Of a DNA stretch of 7,547 bases, positions 1 through 7,547 are shown piece by piece. Every line of letters starts with the position of its first letter. The stretch's first letter is position 1. Position numbers and translations under genes: made by a program. Source of the DNA: a virus (Duplodnaviria > Heunggongvirae > Uroviricota > Caudoviricetes); IMG/VR virus record IMGVR_UViG_2563366903_000007, positions 1 through 7,547 of that record; one strand, 5' to 3'. The notes below the pieces were generated by a model, which was not told where the DNA came from, made no database searches, and saw nothing but the letters and a program-made list of their open reading frames with translations.

Positions 1-374
1 GTGGTCTCCACCAGTGACTGCACCCCGAAGGTAACCCGCAGGCGGTCAATGTTCGCGGACGTAATGGTGCGCGTCACCGGCTTTGCCTTCGTCACCTCCA
101 CGCCCAGTGCGGTTTCCGCCCCGGAGGACTCAAAGCCTTCCGGCGGTGTCTGCTCCTGCTCCCCGGCACGCCAGACGGCGGTCACACCGTGTATCACGGG
201 ATTACCGTCCGTGTCCGTAAGCGGGGTTTTGTTCACCAGAATACTCTGCAGTCCCTTCACCGGACCTTCCACCGGTCCCTCACCAATGGCATCAATCACA
301 CTCATCATCTGCGTGGATTTGAGATTATCCTTCGCCTCACGCGGTGTGTGCCCCTTGCCGCCCCCTTTACCCAC
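1..374 (-). CDS. J: Host specificity / central tail fibre protein J, N-terminal 124 codons only; gene continues past the window start
   Basis: Reverse-strand translation from GTG (complement of 372..374) gives MGKGGGKGHTPREAKDNLKSTQMMSVIDAIGEGPVEGPVKG...TRTITSANIDRLRVTFGVQSLVET, near-identical in pattern to the remembered lambda gpJ N-terminus (MGKGSSKGHTPREAKDNLKSTQLLSVIDAISEGPIEGPVDG...TSANIDRLRFTFGVQALVETT). AGGAGAGGGGGA Shine-Dalgarno lies just upstream. Missed by the ORF track because it runs off the window edge. Confidence 0.9.
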   Translation of the reverse strand, partial: MGKGGGKGHTPREAKDNLKSTQMMSVIDAIGEGPVEGPVKGLQSILVNKTPLTDTDGNPVIHGVTAVWRAGEQEQTPPEGFESSGAETALGVEVTKAKPVTRTITSANIDRLRVTFGVQSLVET

Positions 375-417
375 TCTGTCCCCCTCTCCTGTCTGATGTC
401 TGAATCTGTTTATGCCC

Positions 418-448
418 AAAAAACAACAGGCACCCCGGAGGATGCCTG
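418..448 (-). terminator. Candidate rho-independent terminator on the tail-operon strand, between the small ORF and J
   Basis: Minus-strand RNA reads CAGGCAUCC-UCCG-GGGUGCCUG (about 9-bp stem with one G.U pair, 4-nt loop; plus 427..448) followed immediately by UUGUUUUUU (plus 418..426). Hand-folded, no energy calculation. Confidence 0.5.
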
Positions 449-450
449 TA

Positions 451-546
451 TCATGACTGAATAAAAATTCTGAATATCTTCACATTTTCACACACTGACT
501 GTGGCGCGTATAATTTCGCTGCGTTAGTGTTTTTTTGCCGTGACAT
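451..546 (-). CDS. Hypothetical 31-aa small protein (MSRQKNTNAAKLYAPQSVCENVKIFRIFIQS); candidate moron ORF
   Basis: ATG at complement of 544..546 preceded by AAGGAG (complement of 557..562, 10-nt spacer); TGA stop at 451..453 sits 2 nt before the minus-strand terminator hairpin. Below the ORF-track length cutoff. No similarity to anything I recognise; coding status unproven. Confidence 0.3.
   Translation of the reverse strand: MSRQKNTNAAKLYAPQSVCENVKIFRIFIQS
461..514 (+). promoter_or_regulatory. Candidate sigma70 promoter on the plus strand (antisense to the tail operon)
   Basis: Perfect -10 TATAAT at 509..514; -35 TTCACA at 487..492 (4 of 6 consensus, 16-bp spacer); A/T-rich UP-like tract AATAAAAATT at 461..470. 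Predicted transcription start near 521. Confidence 0.45.
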
Positions 547-621
547 AAAAAAACAACTCCTTAACACTAATCTTCATTTGTCTGAATCTCCCGCAGCTCC
601 GCAACTCTGCGGGATTTTTTT
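521..621 (+). ncRNA. Candidate ~100-nt small RNA, antisense to the I-J intercistronic region and to the start region of the 31-codon ORF
   Basis: Bounded by the promoter above and the plus-strand terminator below; contains no ATG-initiated ORF. Predicted 5' A/U stem-loop (GUUUUUUU 529..536 pairing with AAAAAAAC 547..554), a central C/A-rich single-stranded stretch AACAACUCCUUAACACUAAUC, and a 3' terminator hairpin with U-tail, which is typical Hfq-type sRNA architecture. Not verified against Rfam. Confidence 0.35.
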
Positions 622-622
622 A
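589..622 (+). terminator. Rho-independent terminator on the plus strand, 8 nt from the stop codon of I
   Basis: CCCGCAG (590..596) / 10-nt loop / CUGCGGG (607..613) followed by AUUUUUUUA (614..622). On the minus strand the hairpin is preceded, not followed, by the homopolymer run, so it is orientation-specific for plus-strand transcripts. Confidence 0.6.
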
Positions 623-628
623 TGCCGT

Positions 629-1309
629 TTACCCCTGCCGCCCGATAACCACGACCCTTCCGCCCCCGCCTTCATCACGGGTGCTGATGTCCTGAGAGAT
701 ACGTCGTGAACCAACCAGCATTTCCCCGTAAGGCACCGGCATCGGGTTACCCTGGGCAATCATGTTGTCCAGCGAGGAAAAGTACGTGTTCTGTTTACCG
801 TTATCCGTTGCCCTGTATTCCGGTGTTTTTGCCTTCGGGGCCAGCATCTGTGCCACACCGCCCAGTATCATGCTGGCTCCAAGTGAAAACAGCATCGTGG
901 TAGCAGAAAAACCACCGGCTGCCAGGGCTGAACCCCATAACGCCATTGATGCTCCTGCAGTGAAGAAAGACCCCACAATGGCAGCTGCCCCCAGCACAAT
1001 CTGTAGTCCGCCCTTTCCGGCACCGGCCAGTCGCGGCACAATATGGATAACCGTTCCCTCACCCAGTGGTTCGTGAAGGCGGGCATACACCGCCTCCGGT
1101 GCCGTATCCTCACCGGCAATACGTATCTGGTACCAGCCTTCGTTCATCTGACGGCGAAAGCCCGGCATCTGCATCGACAGGGCGCGGATGGCTTCCGCTG
1201 CCGTGTTCACATACAGGCTGAGGCGGCGGCCAAATCGTTGTAAATCCCCGTGAAGGCAGATGCGTGCCAGTGGCGGTGACGCCAGACAGAATGCGTTCGT
1301 CGTTGCCAT
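629..1309 (-). CDS. I: Tail tip assembly protein I (226 aa)
   Basis: Translation MATTNAFCLASPPLARICLHGDLQRFGRRLSL...NGKQNTYFSSLDNMIAQGNPMPVPYGEMLVGSRRISQDIS matches the remembered lambda gpI pattern (ARICLYGDLQRFGRR..., NGKQNTYFSSLDNM...). Position between K and J and the 103-nt overlap with K are as I recall for lambda. GGGAGAGG Shine-Dalgarno upstream of the ATG. Confidence 0.93.
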   Translation of the reverse strand: MATTNAFCLASPPLARICLHGDLQRFGRRLSLYVNTAAEAIRALSMQMPGFRRQMNEGWYQIRIAGEDTAPEAVYARLHEPLGEGTVIHIVPRLAGAGKGGLQIVLGAAAIVGSFFTAGASMALWGSALAAGGFSATTMLFSLGASMILGGVAQMLAPKAKTPEYRATDNGKQNTYFSSLDNMIAQGNPMPVPYGEMLVGSRRISQDISTRDEGGGGRVVVIGRQG

Positions 1310-1950
1310 TTTTCGGAATACCTCTCCCGTTTACTCAGTTGTTCAGGAATATGGTGCAGCAGCTCGCCATCACCACAGTAAATGGCGGCATGATTCGGCA
1401 CCGATGAACCAAAACAGCACAGCAGCACATCGCCCGGTTGTGCTGATGACAACGGCACCTGATACAGCCCTGTGGCCTCCAGATTATCCAGGTACAGGTT
1501 CTGGCCGTTGCGCCACCAGTCATCCTCGCGATGAAAATCCGGCATTTCAGTCCCCGCCAGATGATAAGCATCCCGGAACAGCGTGTAACAGTCCGTCACC
1601 CCGTGCGCAAAGCGCCGTCCTGTCAGATGTGGCACACAGCGGAATTTGTGAATGTCACCCCGGCAGACCAGCCACCAGGGCAGGGCACTTTTTATCTGCA
1701 GCCGCCGGTCAGCCTCGCTCAGCCAGGGCAGCCCACCGGGATGACTGTGGACCAGTGCCACAATCTCCCCCTGCATCTCTGCCCGCAGCCAGTCTTCCGG
1801 TGCGATACGAAAATACGCCTCCGGCTCTGCGGAAATATTCACACAAGGGATATACCGCTCCCCCTCCGGCGTGCTTATCACGAAGCCGCACGACTCCGCA
1901 GGCGCACACCGCCGGGCATGCGCCAGAATCGCTGATTCAGTCTGTGTCAT
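1207..1950 (-). CDS. K: Tail tip assembly protein K (247 aa), MPN/JAMM-like N-terminal domain plus NlpC/P60-like C-terminal region
   Basis: Contains HSHPGG (JAMM HxH motif) at residues 68..73 and a Cys (VTDCYTLF) and His (NHAAIYCGDGELLHH) spaced as in NlpC/P60 peptidases. Synteny L-K-I. Start taken as the ATG 10 nt after the L stop, which gives a complete MPN domain; the first 87 codons of the longer track ORF 1207..2211 overlap L out of frame and are rejected. The lambda annotation I recall is 199 aa, so the exact start is uncertain. Confidence 0.85.
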   Translation of the reverse strand: MTQTESAILAHARRCAPAESCGFVISTPEGERYIPCVNISAEPEAYFRIAPEDWLRAEMQGEIVALVHSHPGGLPWLSEADRRLQIKSALPWWLVCRGDIHKFRCVPHLTGRRFAHGVTDCYTLFRDAYHLAGTEMPDFHREDDWWRNGQNLYLDNLEATGLYQVPLSSAQPGDVLLCCFGSSVPNHAAIYCGDGELLHHIPEQLSKRERYSEKWQRRTHSVWRHRHWHASAFTGIYNDLAAASACM

Positions 1951-1960
1951 AAACCGGGAT

Positions 1961-2659
1961 TTACTGCGAAAGTTTATTAATGGAAAGGAAACCACCAAAA
2001 TTGCCGACATTCCTGCGCAGTTCACACCCGCGCATGCACTTGCTGCATCTGTCCTTACGGATATCCGTGGTGGGTTTATCGAACTCATCCGCCACAGCCC
2101 CGCCCGTGTAACCACACTCATCAGAGCGGTAGGTCCACATACAGGTGTTCGCCAGCATGATACGACCGGGAAACAGCGCCCCGTCCGTCTCCGTCGGTGT
2201 GGCCAGCACAAACGAGGCCGTCATGGCTGTCAGCTGCGACATCTGCTCCACCACCCAGCGGTCACTCAGCTCCTGCTCCGGGTCCGCTTCCGGATTGCCC
2301 GCAACGAAATTCACCGCATCCAGAAAACGGGCATACACCCGGCGGCGGACCACCGTGGCCCCCACCAGACTCTGCAGGTCTTCCGCCATCCCGGTGACAA
2401 GGCCAAACAGATTGGACACCGTCAGCAACGGTCTGGCACTGCTGCCCTTCCCGCTCATCTCAAAACCGCTGCCGTCAATCGGGTATGCCTGATATTGCCG
2501 CCCCTGCCAGGTGACCGGCTCCCCTTTTTCATTCAGCTCATTACAGAAAAAATACCGCTCACCGCCCTGTACCGTCAGGTCGATTTCCCAGAGCACCACC
2601 CGCGGTGACTGCTCTGACTTAACCGACTCGTTCAGACTTTCTTCGTGAATATCCTGCAT
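1961..2659 (-). CDS. L: Minor tail protein L (232 aa)
   Basis: Same length as lambda gpL and near-identical motifs from memory (VVLWEIDLT, GERYFFCNE.NEKGEPVTWQGRQYQ, GRIMLANTC.WTYR.DECGY.G, VGNFGGFLSINKLSQ). C-terminal four-cysteine cluster retained. ATGA start/stop overlap with M. Confidence 0.93.
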   Translation of the reverse strand: MQDIHEESLNESVKSEQSPRVVLWEIDLTVQGGERYFFCNELNEKGEPVTWQGRQYQAYPIDGSGFEMSGKGSSARPLLTVSNLFGLVTGMAEDLQSLVGATVVRRRVYARFLDAVNFVAGNPEADPEQELSDRWVVEQMSQLTAMTASFVLATPTETDGALFPGRIMLANTCMWTYRSDECGYTGGAVADEFDKPTTDIRKDRCSKCMRGCELRRNVGNFGGFLSINKLSQ

Positions 2660-3000
2660 CAGTTCACCACCTGCTCAATCGTACAACTGAAATCACTGTA
2701 CCTGGCGTTATCTGTGACGCTCCACTCCCGGCACACCACCCTCACCGTCCGGTTATGTTTCGGTGGTCGCCACAAAAAGGCACGGTAACCACCATGCCAC
2801 GATAAAAATTCATCCAGCCAGCGCCGGGTTGGTTCATCCGTCACCCGGAACACCGCCTGAAACGTCTTCAGTCTGGCATTAAGTCCCGTCGGTCGGCGCT
2901 GTTCATAACCGTCACCAAACCGAACCCTCACCACCGACGGTTTCTCACTCACCTGCATCCCTTCACGCGGGACCAGATGCAGCGTTTTTATCTCAGCCAC
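2659..3000 (-). CDS. M: Minor tail protein M (113 aa)
   Basis: Translation contains VRFGDGYEQRRPTGLNARLKTF...FLWRPP...IEQVVN, matching the remembered lambda gpM (VRKVRFGDGYSQ...FEQVVN). GTG start overlapping the end of H; 1-nt overlap with the L start. Confidence 0.92.
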   Translation of the reverse strand: MAEIKTLHLVPREGMQVSEKPSVVRVRFGDGYEQRRPTGLNARLKTFQAVFRVTDEPTRRWLDEFLSWHGGYRAFLWRPPKHNRTVRVVCREWSVTDNARYSDFSCTIEQVVN

Positions 3001-6000
3001 TCAGCATTCCTCCGTCACGTCGCATGGACAGCATCACCGCCTGCACCCGCTGGTCAATCAGCTGCACAAGACTGCCTGCCGCCTCCGGCCCTATCTGTCC
3101 GTTAGCGCCGTCATTCTGAATGGCGATGTGGTAGACCGGGGAATACACCAGACCGGCACTGCCGTTCATACTGCCCACCGCGCGTACGCCCAGCGAGCCA
3201 TCCGCCGCCCGGGTCAGGGGCATAATGGCTTCAGGTCCGGCTTCCCCCATCAGCCCGGCCCCTTTTGCAAACGCAAAGTACGTGGGCGTGTCCACAATGC
3301 TGTTGCTGTACGCACTCAGGTTTGCCGAGGTATACACGCCGCCTTTTGCATTGGCCACCGCACCGCCCAGCCAGTCACCAATACTGCCAATAAATCCTCC
3401 CGCACCGGACATACCATTTGCCGCCGTCTTAATTCCGTTGACAATCGCGGCATTCATAAGAACTTTTGAGATTTCCTGCAGCACTGATGAGGCCCAGTTG
3501 CGCCATTCCACTTTATTCCCGTTCAGCATCTCCGTGATGTTATTCACCATCCCTGAGATACCCTCCGTCGCAAGCTGTGCTGCCTGTGAGGCGTAATCGG
3601 ACGCATTATCCACCCAGTTACTGAGCCCCTCCTGCAAGCCTTTCTGCCAGTCCGCACGCTGCGCATCCGATTCGGCATAAAAGGCTGCCTGGTCCTTAAG
3701 GCGTTCGCTCAGATACTGCGCGTTCTGTGCCCGTGCCTGTCTGTAAAAATCCTCACTGATATCCCCGGTCTGATACTGAGACTGAAGGTCCGCATCCTTC
3801 TGGCGGAAGCTGTCGCGGATCTGCTGCAACTCCCGCATGCGTTCCCTGGCTCGTTCTCCCTGCCCGTATCCCAGCAGTTCGGCTTCATTTGATGCACGCG
3901 CAGCCACATTATCATTCTTCAGGGTCTCTTCCCGGGATCGCAACTGTTCCCGGATTTTTTGCTGGTCAATCAGGGCCGCGTTACGCAGCAGTTCCTGCTT
4001 CTGCATCTCCGTCAGGGTTTTCAGTTCGCCCTGCGCAGTCTGGTACTTCAGCTTCGCCAGCTCTGTATTCTGACCCGCCAGTGCCAGTTGCTCTTTCTGC
4101 TGCTTCAGTAGCCGGGAGAAACTGTCTTCCGCTTTTTCCGTCTCTGATTTTCCACCCCGGGATTTAGGTTTGTTCGCCTCGTTATTACGCCAGGCTTCCA
4201 GAGCATTACTGATATAACGCTGTCTCGCCTCCTGATACGAATCCCCCACAAAACCAAGGTCATCCGCCGCATACCCCAGCCGGGCACGCTCTTTTTCCTC
4301 CCCCTTCAGTCGGGACAGGGCCAGCTCACGTTCTGTTTTTGTCAGGGCGCTCTGCTGTTTATCATCCAGGGTGGCCTGCGGCAGCCGTAACGGTACATTC
4401 ACCAGTCCCTGACGCTGCTGAAGCAGTTCATTCCCCAGCCCCAGCAGACGGTTGAATTCCGTATGCTGACCGTTCATAACCAGCATGGACTGGTACACCT
4501 TATTCTGCTCTGCCGCCTGCTGACGAATTAACGCCACACGACGGTCTTCCAGCCCGGCAAGCACATCCTGAATGGACTGCGCTTTTTCCTGCATCTGTGC
4601 CAGACGGGACTGCTCAACGGCAAGCTGCTCTGTTGCCTGAGAAAGCCCTTCCGTTACGGTCTTCACCGATGTCAGATGGTTTATCATGAATCCGTCACCG
4701 GTTGTCCAGCCAGGGTTAGCCAGAACATACTGATATCCAGCGATTTTTTCCTGCAGGGATTTCACCCGGCTGGCCTGTTCATCAATCAGCCGGTTCTGCT
4801 CTGCCAGAGCCGCCCGTGTTCGTCCTTCATTATCTGAGGCTTCAGGCAAAGACATTGACGGCGTTTTATGCGCGATTTCATCTATCGTCAGTGCATACTG
4901 GCGCGCTGACTCCCTGGCCTGCTCCTGATTCTGGTACAGCGTATACCATGCTGCTGCCCCCAGCATCACCAGTCCGGGTACGCCACCAACCAGTCCCAAC
5001 GCACCAGTCATCAGACGTGAGCCCACCGCCGTTGTACTGTTCAGCGCATTCTGGGCTGCGGTTCTGGCAGCAATATTTCTGTTCAGGCGTTCCTGTGTGG
5101 CCACCAGACGGGCTTCTGCAGCAATCTGCATCTCCGTCCCGCGGGCTGCCGCCACAGCCTGCTGTGCACGGTACACGGCTGCCCTTGCCCGCGCCGTGGC
5201 AATCTGCGTCCCCCTGAGCTGTGCTTCCGCCAGTGCCACTTCATTACGTGCTGCCGTCACAAGTCCTGCCGTGGCAGACACCGCTCCGGAGGCCATATTG
5301 CCAAAGTACCGGGCAACCCCGACGGCAACCAGCGCCCCCGCGGCTGTTGCCACATTATCAATATTACCGGCAACACCGTTCAGCACGCCGGAGAGCGTTT
5401 TTGTCACCCCGCTGGCCTCATTCGCGCCACCCACCCAGGCCATAAAGGCGTTTTCCACCTTTGTGATACTACCGGAAACCGTTTCCGGCATGGCCGCATA
5501 TTCATCACGCAATACCCCCAGCTGGCTGATTAACGCAGGGACCACTTTATCCGCTGTCAGTTTTCCGTCATCCGCCATTGCCTTCAGATCTTTACGGGCC
5601 ACACCCATCCCCGCAGCAAGCGCGCGGATCACCCGGTCGCCATTTTCGTTAACAGCATTAAATTCTTCGCCACGCAGTACACCCTGTGCCAGTGCCTGGC
5701 TGAGCTGGGTGATCACCGAACCGGATTCCGCAACTCCAGCCCCTGACAGTTTCAGTCCTGTCGAAATGGCCTCCGTCACCTTCAGCACATCATCAGCACT
5801 GTAACCATATTCACGCATTGAGGCTGCCGAGCGGGCAAACAGGGCCGCATTATCTGAAAATGCCGTGCCCGTCCGCTGGCTGATATCCATCAGCACTTTC
5901 TGTGATGACGAAAATTCATCGGATGACTGCGACGCCTGTTTCAGTCGGGCATTCACGGAACTCCATTCATCGGCCAGAGAAATCAGGTGCCCGGTGGCAA

Positions 6001-6235
6001 AGGCACCTGCAAATGCCCCCGCCGTTCCGGCAACTGAAGCGCGGATTTCCGTCAACTGGCTGTTCAGCTCAGCCAGGGCGCGTCGCTGCTCCCGGGCGAC
6101 TGCGGCAGCCTGACGCCCGCCATTCTGCAGGGTCCGGTAATATTCACTGCCCATGCGGGAAGCCCGCTGGATCTCCGACTGGAATGACTGCGAATTTGCC
6201 GAAATTTTGATAATCAGTTCACGTAACGTCGCCAT
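2993..6235 (-). CDS. H: Tail tape measure protein H (1080 aa)
   Basis: Largest ORF, located between G-T and M. Typical tape-measure composition: long Ala/Gln/Glu/Arg-rich coiled-coil regions, a hydrophobic Gly-rich segment (LMTGALGLVGGVPGLVMLGAAAWY), and a C-terminal region (TPTYFAFAKGAGLMGEAGPEAIMPL) resembling the lambda gpH C-terminus as I recall it. GGAGAAAGG Shine-Dalgarno before the ATG at 6233..6235. Confidence 0.95.
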   Translation of the reverse strand: MATLRELIIKISANSQSFQSEIQRASRMGSEYYRTLQNGGRQAAAVAREQRRALAELNSQLTEIRASVAGTAGAFAGAFATGHLISLADEWSSVNARLKQASQSSDEFSSSQKVLMDISQRTGTAFSDNAALFARSAASMREYGYSADDVLKVTEAISTGLKLSGAGVAESGSVITQLSQALAQGVLRGEEFNAVNENGDRVIRALAAGMGVARKDLKAMADDGKLTADKVVPALISQLGVLRDEYAAMPETVSGSITKVENAFMAWVGGANEASGVTKTLSGVLNGVAGNIDNVATAAGALVAVGVARYFGNMASGAVSATAGLVTAARNEVALAEAQLRGTQIATARARAAVYRAQQAVAAARGTEMQIAAEARLVATQERLNRNIAARTAAQNALNSTTAVGSRLMTGALGLVGGVPGLVMLGAAAWYTLYQNQEQARESARQYALTIDEIAHKTPSMSLPEASDNEGRTRAALAEQNRLIDEQASRVKSLQEKIAGYQYVLANPGWTTGDGFMINHLTSVKTVTEGLSQATEQLAVEQSRLAQMQEKAQSIQDVLAGLEDRRVALIRQQAAEQNKVYQSMLVMNGQHTEFNRLLGLGNELLQQRQGLVNVPLRLPQATLDDKQQSALTKTERELALSRLKGEEKERARLGYAADDLGFVGDSYQEARQRYISNALEAWRNNEANKPKSRGGKSETEKAEDSFSRLLKQQKEQLALAGQNTELAKLKYQTAQGELKTLTEMQKQELLRNAALIDQQKIREQLRSREETLKNDNVAARASNEAELLGYGQGERARERMRELQQIRDSFRQKDADLQSQYQTGDISEDFYRQARAQNAQYLSERLKDQAAFYAESDAQRADWQKGLQEGLSNWVDNASDYASQAAQLATEGISGMVNNITEMLNGNKVEWRNWASSVLQEISKVLMNAAIVNGIKTAANGMSGAGGFIGSIGDWLGGAVANAKGGVYTSANLSAYSNSIVDTPTYFAFAKGAGLMGEAGPEAIMPLTRAADGSLGVRAVGSMNGSAGLVYSPVYHIAIQNDGANGQIGPEAAGSLVQLIDQRVQAVMLSMRRDGGMLSG

Positions 6236-6251
6236 TCACCTTTCTCCGGGC

Positions 6252-6275
6252 GTAAAAAAACCGCCTCAGCGGTTC
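6252..6275 (-). terminator. Weak terminator-like hairpin with U-tract in the T-H intergenic space
   Basis: Minus-strand RNA AACCGC-UGAG-GCGGUU (6-bp stem, 4-nt loop) followed by a run of U, lying between the T stop (6283..6285) and the H ribosome-binding site. Short stem, so probably at most partial termination. Confidence 0.3.
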
Positions 6276-6282
6276 TCATCAT

Positions 6283-6962
6283 TCATGACTGTGCTGCAAA
6301 GCTCAGCGCGTCTTCCAGCGCCGTAAACGGATCCACCTCCGGCTTGTCCTCATCCTCGCCCCAGCAGAGCATGGCGTCCTTCAGTGCAACATTCATCCCC
6401 TGTGCCCCAAAAACCGCTTTCACGATCTGTGCATTACGGATATCCCCGCGCTCATCACCCAGCGGGGATACCCTGTCGAACTCCATCCACATCATCGCCT
6501 CGCTCGCACTCAGGCTGTGCTGCAGTTCGGATAAGGTGCGCCCCAGACGGAGCGCAAGTCGCATCAGAAAGCGAATTTCCGGGCGGGCTACTTTTTTCTG
6601 GCCGACTCTGCATCAGCGATCAGTTCCAGTGCCTGACGCAGCAACCGGGCATGTACCGGACCATAGACGGCCAGCACCTGCTCACGGTCGTCCGGAGTGA
6701 ACACCCGCTGCAGATCCGTATCACACAGGACATCGCAGAACAGCGTCACATCCGCTTCCAGGTTACGGCGGGTTTTCGCCACCACCGACAGGGTATCGTC
6801 ATCCTCTCCATCACCATTGAGCACTTCCTGCCACAGATACCAGGCCTCTGCCGAAGGCTCCCGCAGCACCACGCTGACATTACCCCATTCCGGCACCTTC
6901 ACCGTTTTATGACGAAACCCTGACAGTCTGGCCAGCGCCAGCGTTTTCAGATCTTTTGCCAT
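6283..6962 (-). CDS. GT: G-T tail assembly chaperone fusion made by programmed -1 ribosomal frameshift (G frame 6597..6962 joined to the -1 frame 6283..6597)
   Basis: After the slip at AAAAAAG the -1 frame continues VARPEIRFLMRLALRLGRTLSELQHSL... to the stop at 6283..6285, which is exactly the track ORF 6283..6564 extended upstream. The T frame has no ribosome-binding site or sensible independent start. The G/G-T frameshift is conserved in long-tailed phages. Confidence 0.8.
6588..6962 (-). CDS. G: Tail assembly chaperone G (124 aa)
   Basis: Small acidic protein (DGEDDD stretch) directly upstream of the tape measure gene, ending ...LIADAESARKK with a slippery heptamer in its last codons, as expected for the gpG chaperone. 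Confidence 0.9.
   Translation of the reverse strand: MAKDLKTLALARLSGFRHKTVKVPEWGNVSVVLREPSAEAWYLWQEVLNGDGEDDDTLSVVAKTRRNLEADVTLFCDVLCDTDLQRVFTPDDREQVLAVYGPVHARLLRQALELIADAESARKK
6591..6597 (-). other. Slippery heptamer A AAA AAG for the G-T -1 frameshift
   Basis: Minus-strand sequence GCC AGA AAA AAG TAG; the heptamer A-AAA-AAG (complement of 6591..6597) lies in the last two codons of G immediately before its TAG stop. Confidence 0.75.
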
Positions 6963-6967
6963 AAGCC

Positions 6968-7547
6968 TTATCCGCCCGCACCATTAACCGTTACTGTACA
7001 CGCATCAGAGGTAATGCTCTGCGGCTGTTCTGCAGAATCCGTTACCTCGCAGGTATAAGCCCCCTTATCACCTGACTGCGTATTGGCTTTACTGAAAGTG
7101 TCAGTAGTCTGTCCCTCTACCGGCTGACCATCCTTCTTCCAGGCGTGTTTATAAGGCGGCGTTCCCCCGTTGACACTGACTGACATTGTCAGCAGCGCAC
7201 CGGTATTCACGGTAAGTGTCTTATCCAGATTTTTCCCAAACGCCAGCGGTACCACATAGGACACCGGTTTACCCTTCAGACGCAGTGAAAACGTTGCAGC
7301 CACCACGCCGTTGGTACCGGATGACCAGGTGTGCTGACGCACTTCCGCCAGGAACTTAAAGCCCTTACCGGACGGAAACTGCACCTTAAACGCATACACC
7401 GTGTCATTGTCATAGGCATCACGCAGGGCGTTCTGGGCCTGATTCAGATAAAAATTACCCGACATGGAAATCTCGGACGACGCCCCCAGACCGTTGATGT
7501 TCTCCTGCTCTGTGGAGCAGAGCGTGGTCACATCAATATCCTGTTTC
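6968..7547 (-). CDS. V: Major tail (tube) protein V with C-terminal Ig-like domain; 5' end lies beyond the window
   Basis: Position immediately upstream of G. Motif YAFKVQFPSGKGF...GKP resembles the lambda gpV core (YKIRFPNGTVDVFRGW) from memory. The C-terminal ~80 residues (PYKHAWKKDGQPVEG...GAYTCEVTD) look like an Ig-like fold. The frame stays open upstream of the track's GTG at 7529..7531 to the window edge, so the true start is probably outside the window. Confidence 0.82.
   Translation of the reverse strand, partial: KQDIDVTTLCSTEQENINGLGASSEISMSGNFYLNQAQNALRDAYDNDTVYAFKVQFPSGKGFKFLAEVRQHTWSSGTNGVVAATFSLRLKGKPVSYVVPLAFGKNLDKTLTVNTGALLTMSVSVNGGTPPYKHAWKKDGQPVEGQTTDTFSKANTQSGDKGAYTCEVTDSAEQPQSITSDACTVTVNGAGG

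Follow-up and report, generated by a model that had tools for sequence, protein, structure and literature searches.

The G and T tail genes of an HK97-like (lambdoid) E. coli prophage, contained in a window of 7,547 nucleotides (the whole stretch of DNA analysed here, positions 1 to 7,547 of IMG/VR virus record IMGVR_UViG_2563366903_000007), very probably produce two chaperones, G and the fusion G-T, by a programmed -1 ribosomal frameshift at the end of G. The gene order, the reading frames, the slippery heptamer and the conservation of this heptamer are read directly from the sequence, and the literature shows about 7% of -1 frameshifting in E. coli for the exact sequence. In the proposed mechanism, most ribosomes would read G to its TAG codon and release a chaperone of 124 aa. 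In a small fraction of them, tRNA-Lys on AAA and AAG would move one base backwards and pair again with AAA AAA, and the slipped ribosomes would continue with GUA GCC CGC... to give a G-T fusion of 226 aa. By homology with lambda G and G-T, the G part of both proteins would coat the tape measure protein and the T part would recruit the major tail protein, so that a low and fixed G-T:G ratio would be built into the mRNA. Also, as in lambda, both G and G-T would be required for tail assembly and would be absent from the mature virion.

Arrangement of the G and T frames

All the genes of the window are on the minus strand and correspond to a lambdoid tail module (ORF list and Pfam), where M-, L-, K- and I-like genes are also found. 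In the order of this strand, a V-like gene is followed by G, by the T frame (open from 6612 to 6283) and by the tape measure gene; as in the G/G-T class, the major tail and tape measure genes directly flank two overlapping ORFs. The features of the locus are as follows:

6968..7531, minus strand: major tail (tube) protein gene, 3' part (Pfam Phage_tail_2; "major tail subunit" in the annotation of relatives)
6962..6588, minus strand: gene G, tail assembly chaperone, zero-frame product of 124 aa plus TAG (ORF list, Pfam, PHROG)
6588..6612, minus strand: overlap of 25 nt open in both the G and the -1 (T) frames (frame analysis)
6597..6591, minus strand: slippery heptamer A_AAA_AAG, adjoining the stop codon; its zero-frame codons AAA and AAG occupy the P and A sites, respectively
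6588..6590, minus strand: zero-frame TAG stop codon, directly 3' of the heptamer
6283..6591, minus strand: T segment read after the slip in the -1 frame, 102 codons (VARPEIRFLM...AAQS) plus TGA at 6285..6283
2993..6235, minus strand: tape measure protein gene, 1080 aa (Pfam Phage_HK97_TLTM, TMP_3, Tape_meas_lam_C)

G matches Phage_TAC_1 (Pfam PF06222) along its entire length (residues 1-124 of 124; E 1.7e-61, 206.1 bits, cut-off 25), and its PHROG match is 344, tail assembly chaperone. On the other hand, the product of the -1 frame matches Phage_tail_T (Pfam PF06223; E 7.5e-19, 68.4 bits, cut-off 25.9). Moreover, PHROG 14766, a profile of 224 positions built on fused G-T proteins, aligns in order with the two halves, the predicted fusion being of 124 + 102 = 226 aa.

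The 3' end of G reads AGA (6599-6597) AAA (6596-6594) AAG (6593-6591) TAG (6590-6588) on the minus strand. Further upstream the -1 frame is blocked by a nearby TGA, and it does not open until 6612; because both frames are open only in these 25 nt, the frame change is confined to them, and the sole phased X_XXY_YYZ motif that they contain is A_AAA_AAG at 6597..6591. The slip would be located precisely on this heptamer. Translation of the -1 frame from this point gives KVARPEIRFLMRLALRLG..., the codons after the slip being GUA GCC CGC CCG GAA AUU CGC UUU, and the stretch across the predicted G-T junction is ...AESARKKVARPEIR. The initial annotation had proposed that the ribosome slips by -1 at A AAA AAG, over the two final codons of G, leading to a G-T fusion with the junction ...ESARKK-VARPEIRF...; the phase, the frames and the conservation agree with this slip, and the translation reproduces the junction.

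On its own, the heptamer is not statistically significant. AAAAAAG is present once in the window, considering both strands, against 0.6 copies expected, and at least one copy is observed in 90 of 200 shuffles. The weight of the heptamer comes instead from its phase, its place inside the 25-nt overlap, its conservation and the published measurement. With respect to its surroundings, the Arg codon ahead of the Lys codons of the heptamer (6597..6599, minus strand) is AGA, which is a rare Arg codon in E. coli. The codon at this place in relatives always ends in A (AGA, AAA or GAA), and this is consistent with selection keeping the first base of the heptamer.

Two further observations concern the flanking genes. 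The C-terminal part of the major tail protein is an Ig-like domain (residues ~100-182; Pfam Ig_2, I-set and Ig_3), and Ig-like decorations are common on the tube proteins of lambdoid phages. Also, a terminator-like hairpin is present at 6256..6277 (minus strand), between the stop codon of T and the start of the tape measure gene, with the form GAGAACCGC-UGAG-GCGGUUUUU and a run of seven U; its folding energy is -14.6 kcal/mol (z = -2.3), and a consensus terminator scan made no call at this hairpin. Putative terminators are annotated at the matching position in HK97 and HK446, flanking a moron that is absent from the window.

Previous measurements and known systems

The G-T region is 98-99% identical to that of Stx1a-, Stx2a-, Stx2c-converting and other lambdoid prophages of E. 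coli O157 and related strains, and it is found in 1246 of 5426 complete E. coli genomes (~23%). An alignment of the window with ECs_1801, from the Sakai prophage Sp9, reveals near-identical sequences, heptamer and TAG included. ECs1801 (E. coli O157:H7 Sakai Sp9) is essentially the same locus, with AGA AAA AAG TAG and products of 124 and 226 aa in both; a few scattered substitutions are located elsewhere in G and T, whereas no difference is observed at the recoding site. In Suppl. Table S4 of Sharma et al. 2014 (PMC4066793), ECs1801 is assigned to the prophage cluster A_AAA_AAG_25, a tail assembly chaperone cluster of 53 genes. This cluster is marked '[true]', and the footnote explains that -1 frameshifting 'can be safely inferred' (PMC4066793). 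Table S6 of the same work gives for ECs1801 a zero-frame product of 124 aa, a frameshift product of 226 aa and a motif at the extreme end of the gene.

The efficiency has also been determined. In Antonov et al. 2013 (PMC3711429), an E. coli GST-MBP reporter gave 6% and 7% for two genes of the 'phage tail assembly chaperone' GeneTack cluster. The second value corresponds to the insert 'Phage_TAC 15618692' (7% +/- 0.79 frameshifting in E. coli; PMC3711429 Suppl. Table S2), which is found without changes in the window:

6543..6617, minus strand: stretch of 75 nt identical to the published insert 'Phage_TAC 15618692' (exact match, 0 mismatches)

The frameshift reporter that the initial annotation had proposed as a check is then already published, and its value of 7% covers either ribosomal or transcriptional slippage, as the GST-MBP reporter reads both alike. 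Taking together the published 7% and the identity of the insert found here, the amount of fusion corresponds to a low percentage of that of the zero-frame product. The G-T frameshift site is already known, having been catalogued twice and measured once on an identical sequence. As a discovery it carries little weight, being recoding of a textbook class, with its sequence in two genome-wide frameshift catalogues and its efficiency measured; the practical value lies in the annotation of G-T.

The initial annotation also compared this heptamer with that of lambda, given as G GGA AAG used at a low level. This was right: lambda reads GCG GGA AAG, and its G:G-T ratio, of ~30:1, is fixed by infrequent -1 slippage close to the end of G according to the lambda studies as cited in PMC5009743, where the work cited on G/G-T includes Levin, Hendrix and Casjens 1993 and Xu, Hendrix and Duda 2004, 2013, 2014. 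However, the proposal that A AAA AAG is markedly more slippery finds no support, since both heptamers are equivalent in matched E. coli reporters. When all 64 heptamers were placed in one reporter, A_AAA_AAG and G_GGA_AAG both ranked in the top tier (Sharma et al. 2014, PMC4066793). In Suppl. Table S3 of that work, A_AAA_AAG and G_GGA_AAG give 0.291 vs 0.277%, respectively, when no stimulator is present; the values are 4.26 vs 3.80% if the IS911 stimulators are added and 39.0 vs 43.0% if the IS3 pseudoknot is used. The high rate of dnaX is due to its flanking stimulators and not to the heptamer itself. A change of the G:G-T ratio driven by the heptamer was the sole potentially new part of the initial annotation, and it is contradicted by published measurements, among them 7% here and 6% for a family member with G GGA AAG (PMC3711429). 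The latter is the sibling insert ...GCG_GGA_AAG_CCG_TAA... (6% +/- 0.61; PMC3711429 Suppl. Table S2).

Moreover, the contrast with lambda is less apt than it appears, the window G not being a homologue of lambda G and A AAA AAG being the commonest slip site in its own family. Lambda G belongs to Phage_TAC_2 (PF06894), a family with no match in the window G, and a BLASTP comparison gives E = 6.5; homology between the two G proteins was rejected. The resemblance to lambda resides in the gene order and its logic, in T, which in both cases belongs to Phage_tail_T (54.1 bits for lambda T), and in the A-site AAG read by tRNA-Lys. On the other hand, in lambda GCG GGA AAG is followed by five codons and TGA, whereas the heptamer of the window, A_AAA_AAG, adjoins the stop codon.

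A closer system is the gp13/gp14 pair of HK97, which also combines Phage_TAC_1 (203.3 bits for gp13) with a T-like extension and is 63% identical in G and 58% in T. As in the window, the pair is placed between the major tail and tape measure genes, the -1 frameshift occurs at AAG, and the junction K-V-x-T-P-G-x-x-F-L-M is conserved. Nonetheless, HK97 reads CGG GAA AAG, that is G_GAA_AAG, with near-cognate re-pairing in the P site, five codons before the stop, and the moron gp15 separates its T from its tape measure gene.

Finally, dnaX and the cassettes of the IS911/IS3 type share with the window A_AAA_AAG and the chemistry of tRNA-Lys re-pairing. These systems reach 30-50% by means of an upstream Shine-Dalgarno-like element and/or a stem-loop or pseudoknot located 5-9 nt downstream, whereas in the window no Shine-Dalgarno element and no conserved proximal structure were found and the rate is ~7%. 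Also, the frameshift product is the shorter one in dnaX and the longer one (G-T) in the window.

The slip site among relatives and the origin of the fusion

A search of IMG/VR by the flanking sequences, leaving the 12 central bases free, gave 104 contigs with 67 distinct G-T regions. In all the contigs with the flanking sequence (104/104), the site reads AGAAAAAAGTAG, the heptamer being invariant. More distant relatives, with G proteins 27-68% identical, were drawn from phage records and from one genome per species. The alignment used to look for related loci did not include the Burkholderia phages, as no stretch was conserved enough in a set of 8 sequences with them. The family census comprises 48 distinct loci, with two loci of disrupted G or T excluded (L029, from Leclercia adecarboxylata NCTC13032, and L041, from Candidatus Symbiopectobacterium endolongispinus). 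These two have a truncated or disrupted end of G and no T match in either alternative frame, and they probably represent prophages in decay.

All 50 loci having a T match place it in the -1 frame, and the junction K-V-x-x-P-x-x-x-F-L-M is kept from the first -1 codon onward in the 48 distinct loci. The slip-site layout of the window is also present in relatives with G proteins 50-68% identical. The slip sites are distributed as follows:

A_AAA_AAG: 17/48 loci, of which 14 adjoin the stop codon and 3 lie 8-10 codons ahead of it
G_GAA_AAG: 10/48 loci, the HK97 type
G_GGA_AAG: 6/48 loci, the heptamer of lambda
N_GCA_AAG, G_GTA_AAG and A_GAA_AAG: 12/48 loci together, followed directly by TAA
G_GGA_AAC: 2/48 loci
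A_AAA_AAA: 1/48 loci

Thus, A_AAA_AAG is the commonest slip site of the Phage_TAC_1 (HK97 gp13-type) family (17/48), and the layout of the window is the commonest in the family. The near-invariant part is the A-site AAG preceded by A, observed in 45/48 loci, in line with the shifty behaviour described for E. coli tRNA-Lys on A_AAG, and AAG adjoins the stop codon in 26 of the 48. Several P-site triplets before one invariant AAG give similar low frameshift rates across phages, and the pattern of the census is consistent with selection on the G:G-T ratio and not on a particular heptamer.

Loci of the HK97 type (L002/L007, that is HK97 and HK446; L013-L018, L027, L009, L031 and L034) have no perfect heptamer, their zero frame being CGG GAA AAG. 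At these G_GAA_AAG loci, the P-site tRNA-Glu would need to re-pair on GGA, and the K-V junction in the translated sequences implies that the slip would still occur at AAG. In another 12 distinct relatives, G ends in GCA, GTA or GAA followed by AAG TAA (L010, L028, L030, L032, L036-L039, L048, L049, L053 and L017), and here the tetramer A_AAG, adjoining the stop codon, is the only option for a -1 slip. The Klebsiella group among them (L010, L028, L030, L032) has an ATG in the -1 frame two codons later, so an independent initiation of T is possible in this group.

For the window, a similar proposal would be that T has a start of its own, ATG 6564, and constitutes a separate gene (93 aa), the heptamer being incidental. 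RefSeq (PGAP) and several GenBank phage records (L003, L004, L008) do have T as a free CDS of 93 aa (6283..6564, minus strand), or shorter, named 'phage tail assembly protein T' or 'minor tail protein', and an in-frame ATG matching 6564 is found in 39 of 40 distinct relatives. However, the 26 nt upstream of this ATG, UAGCCCGCCCGGAAAUUCGCUUUCUG, contain no Shine-Dalgarno-like sequence, and locus L052 has TTC where the others have ATG. Moreover, the -1-frame protein is conserved upstream of ATG 6564 (V-x-x-P-x-x-x-F-L), as far as the AAG codon, a GST-MBP fusion product was seen from the exact sequence of the window at 7% (PMC3711429), and the curators of HK97 and HK446 annotate the joined product, all of which leaves an independent T highly improbable. 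Indeed, in the records of HK97, HK446 and KS9 the homologous genes are given as one CDS, joined through a -1 frameshift. There is thus an annotation gap, where a slippage product of 226 aa, G-T, is mis-called as a separate T in the prophages of ~23% of the complete E. coli genomes.

A fusion could also originate before translation, if the RNA polymerase added one A in the A6 run and this transcriptional slippage were its main source. One inserted A would yield a protein identical to the -1 ribosomal product (...RKKVARP...), the published GST-MBP reporter gives the same readout for both routes, and runs of 7-8 A are present in several relatives. Nonetheless, A6 is shorter than the runs cited for transcriptional realignment (An, n > 7; Antonov et al. 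2013, PMC3711429), the dnaX examples having 9-10 A, and the terminal G of the heptamer is kept in 45/48 loci, with no drift to a longer A run. Also, 31/48 loci have the same -1 arrangement without a homopolymer run (G_GGA_AAG, G_GAA_AAG, GCA_AAG), and the sibling with G_GGA_AAG still gives 6%. As the main source of G-T, transcriptional slippage is very unlikely. Even less credible, to the point of being nearly negligible, is that G-T was once a single gene, broken by a frameshift mutation in a defective prophage, with no programmed recoding. It is true that many lambdoid prophages of the O157 type are defective and that the tail region of Sakai Sp9 has pseudogenes elsewhere, but the -1 split with a slippery site is found in Escherichia, Enterobacter, Klebsiella, Serratia, Pectobacterium, Pantoea, Burkholderia and Pseudomonas, and in viable phages (HK97), and a heptamer that is invariant in 104/104 contigs argues against a decayed gene.

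Context of the slip site

Stimulatory elements were looked for on both sides of the heptamer. For the upstream side, a Shine-Dalgarno-like stimulator was looked for 6-17 nt before the heptamer and none was found, GCUGAUGCAGAGUCGGCCAG containing no GGAG, AGGA or GAGG; in agreement, Sharma et al. 2014 (PMC4066793) give the cluster A_AAA_AAG_25 the score 'N' for such an element. For the downstream side, the RNA folding suggested by the initial annotation was run over 60 and 151 nt, with z-scores of -2.0 and -1.0, respectively, and two hairpins were obtained:

6560..6585, minus strand: weak A-U-rich hairpin starting 5 nt after the heptamer (minimum-energy fold)
6537..6556, minus strand: G+C-rich hairpin UGCGCUCC-GUCU-GGGGCGCA, starting 35 nt after the heptamer, inside the LALRLGRT codons (folds)

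A comparison of the folds of 13-14 relatives with the same slip-site layout does not reproduce the proximal hairpin, which is probably fortuitous. In Table S8 of Sharma et al. 2014 (PMC4066793), the structure excess per nt of the cluster is 0.020 +/- 0.023, no better than the local average. The distal hairpin does recur in relatives, but within the codons of the conserved LALRxGRT motif. A covariation analysis of 40 distinct relatives found no pair of this hairpin changed on both sides, and its pairing is no better than that of shuffled controls in the same set (75.0% vs 74.7%). As a classical stimulator, the hairpin at 6537..6556 was rejected, being too distant from the slip site and lacking covariation support. 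The initial annotation had seen no convincing downstream structure by eye, and folding, relatives and covariation bear this out, none of them supporting one.

In this case, the rate calls for another contribution. The bare A_AAA_AAG gives only ~0.3% in another reporter (PMC4066793), against ~7% for the sequence of the window; therefore, something in the local context must raise the rate. The adjoining TAG codon may contribute by delaying the ribosome, in a 'shifty stop' context. Extending this to the family of the HK97 type, the core signal could conceivably be the tetramer A_AAG at or beside the stop codon of G, with the G:G-T ratio being set by slow termination in place of a stimulatory RNA structure, a tentative proposal that we regard as rather doubtful. 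Of the 26 loci where AAG adjoins the stop codon, 12 have a non-slippery P-site codon (GCA, GTA, GAA). If true, A_AAG with a shifty stop would account for the ~7% here as compared with the ~0.3% of the bare A_AAA_AAG, and it would concern a known type of context effect.

Finally, the codons of the ALRxGR motif of T are unusually uniform among the 40 distinct relatives, with CTC for Leu in 27/40, GGG for Gly in 30/40 and GCG for Ala in 36/40. This choice of CTC and GGG is a mild oddity; the Leu neighbouring these codons prefers instead CTG, in 29/40 of the distinct relatives.
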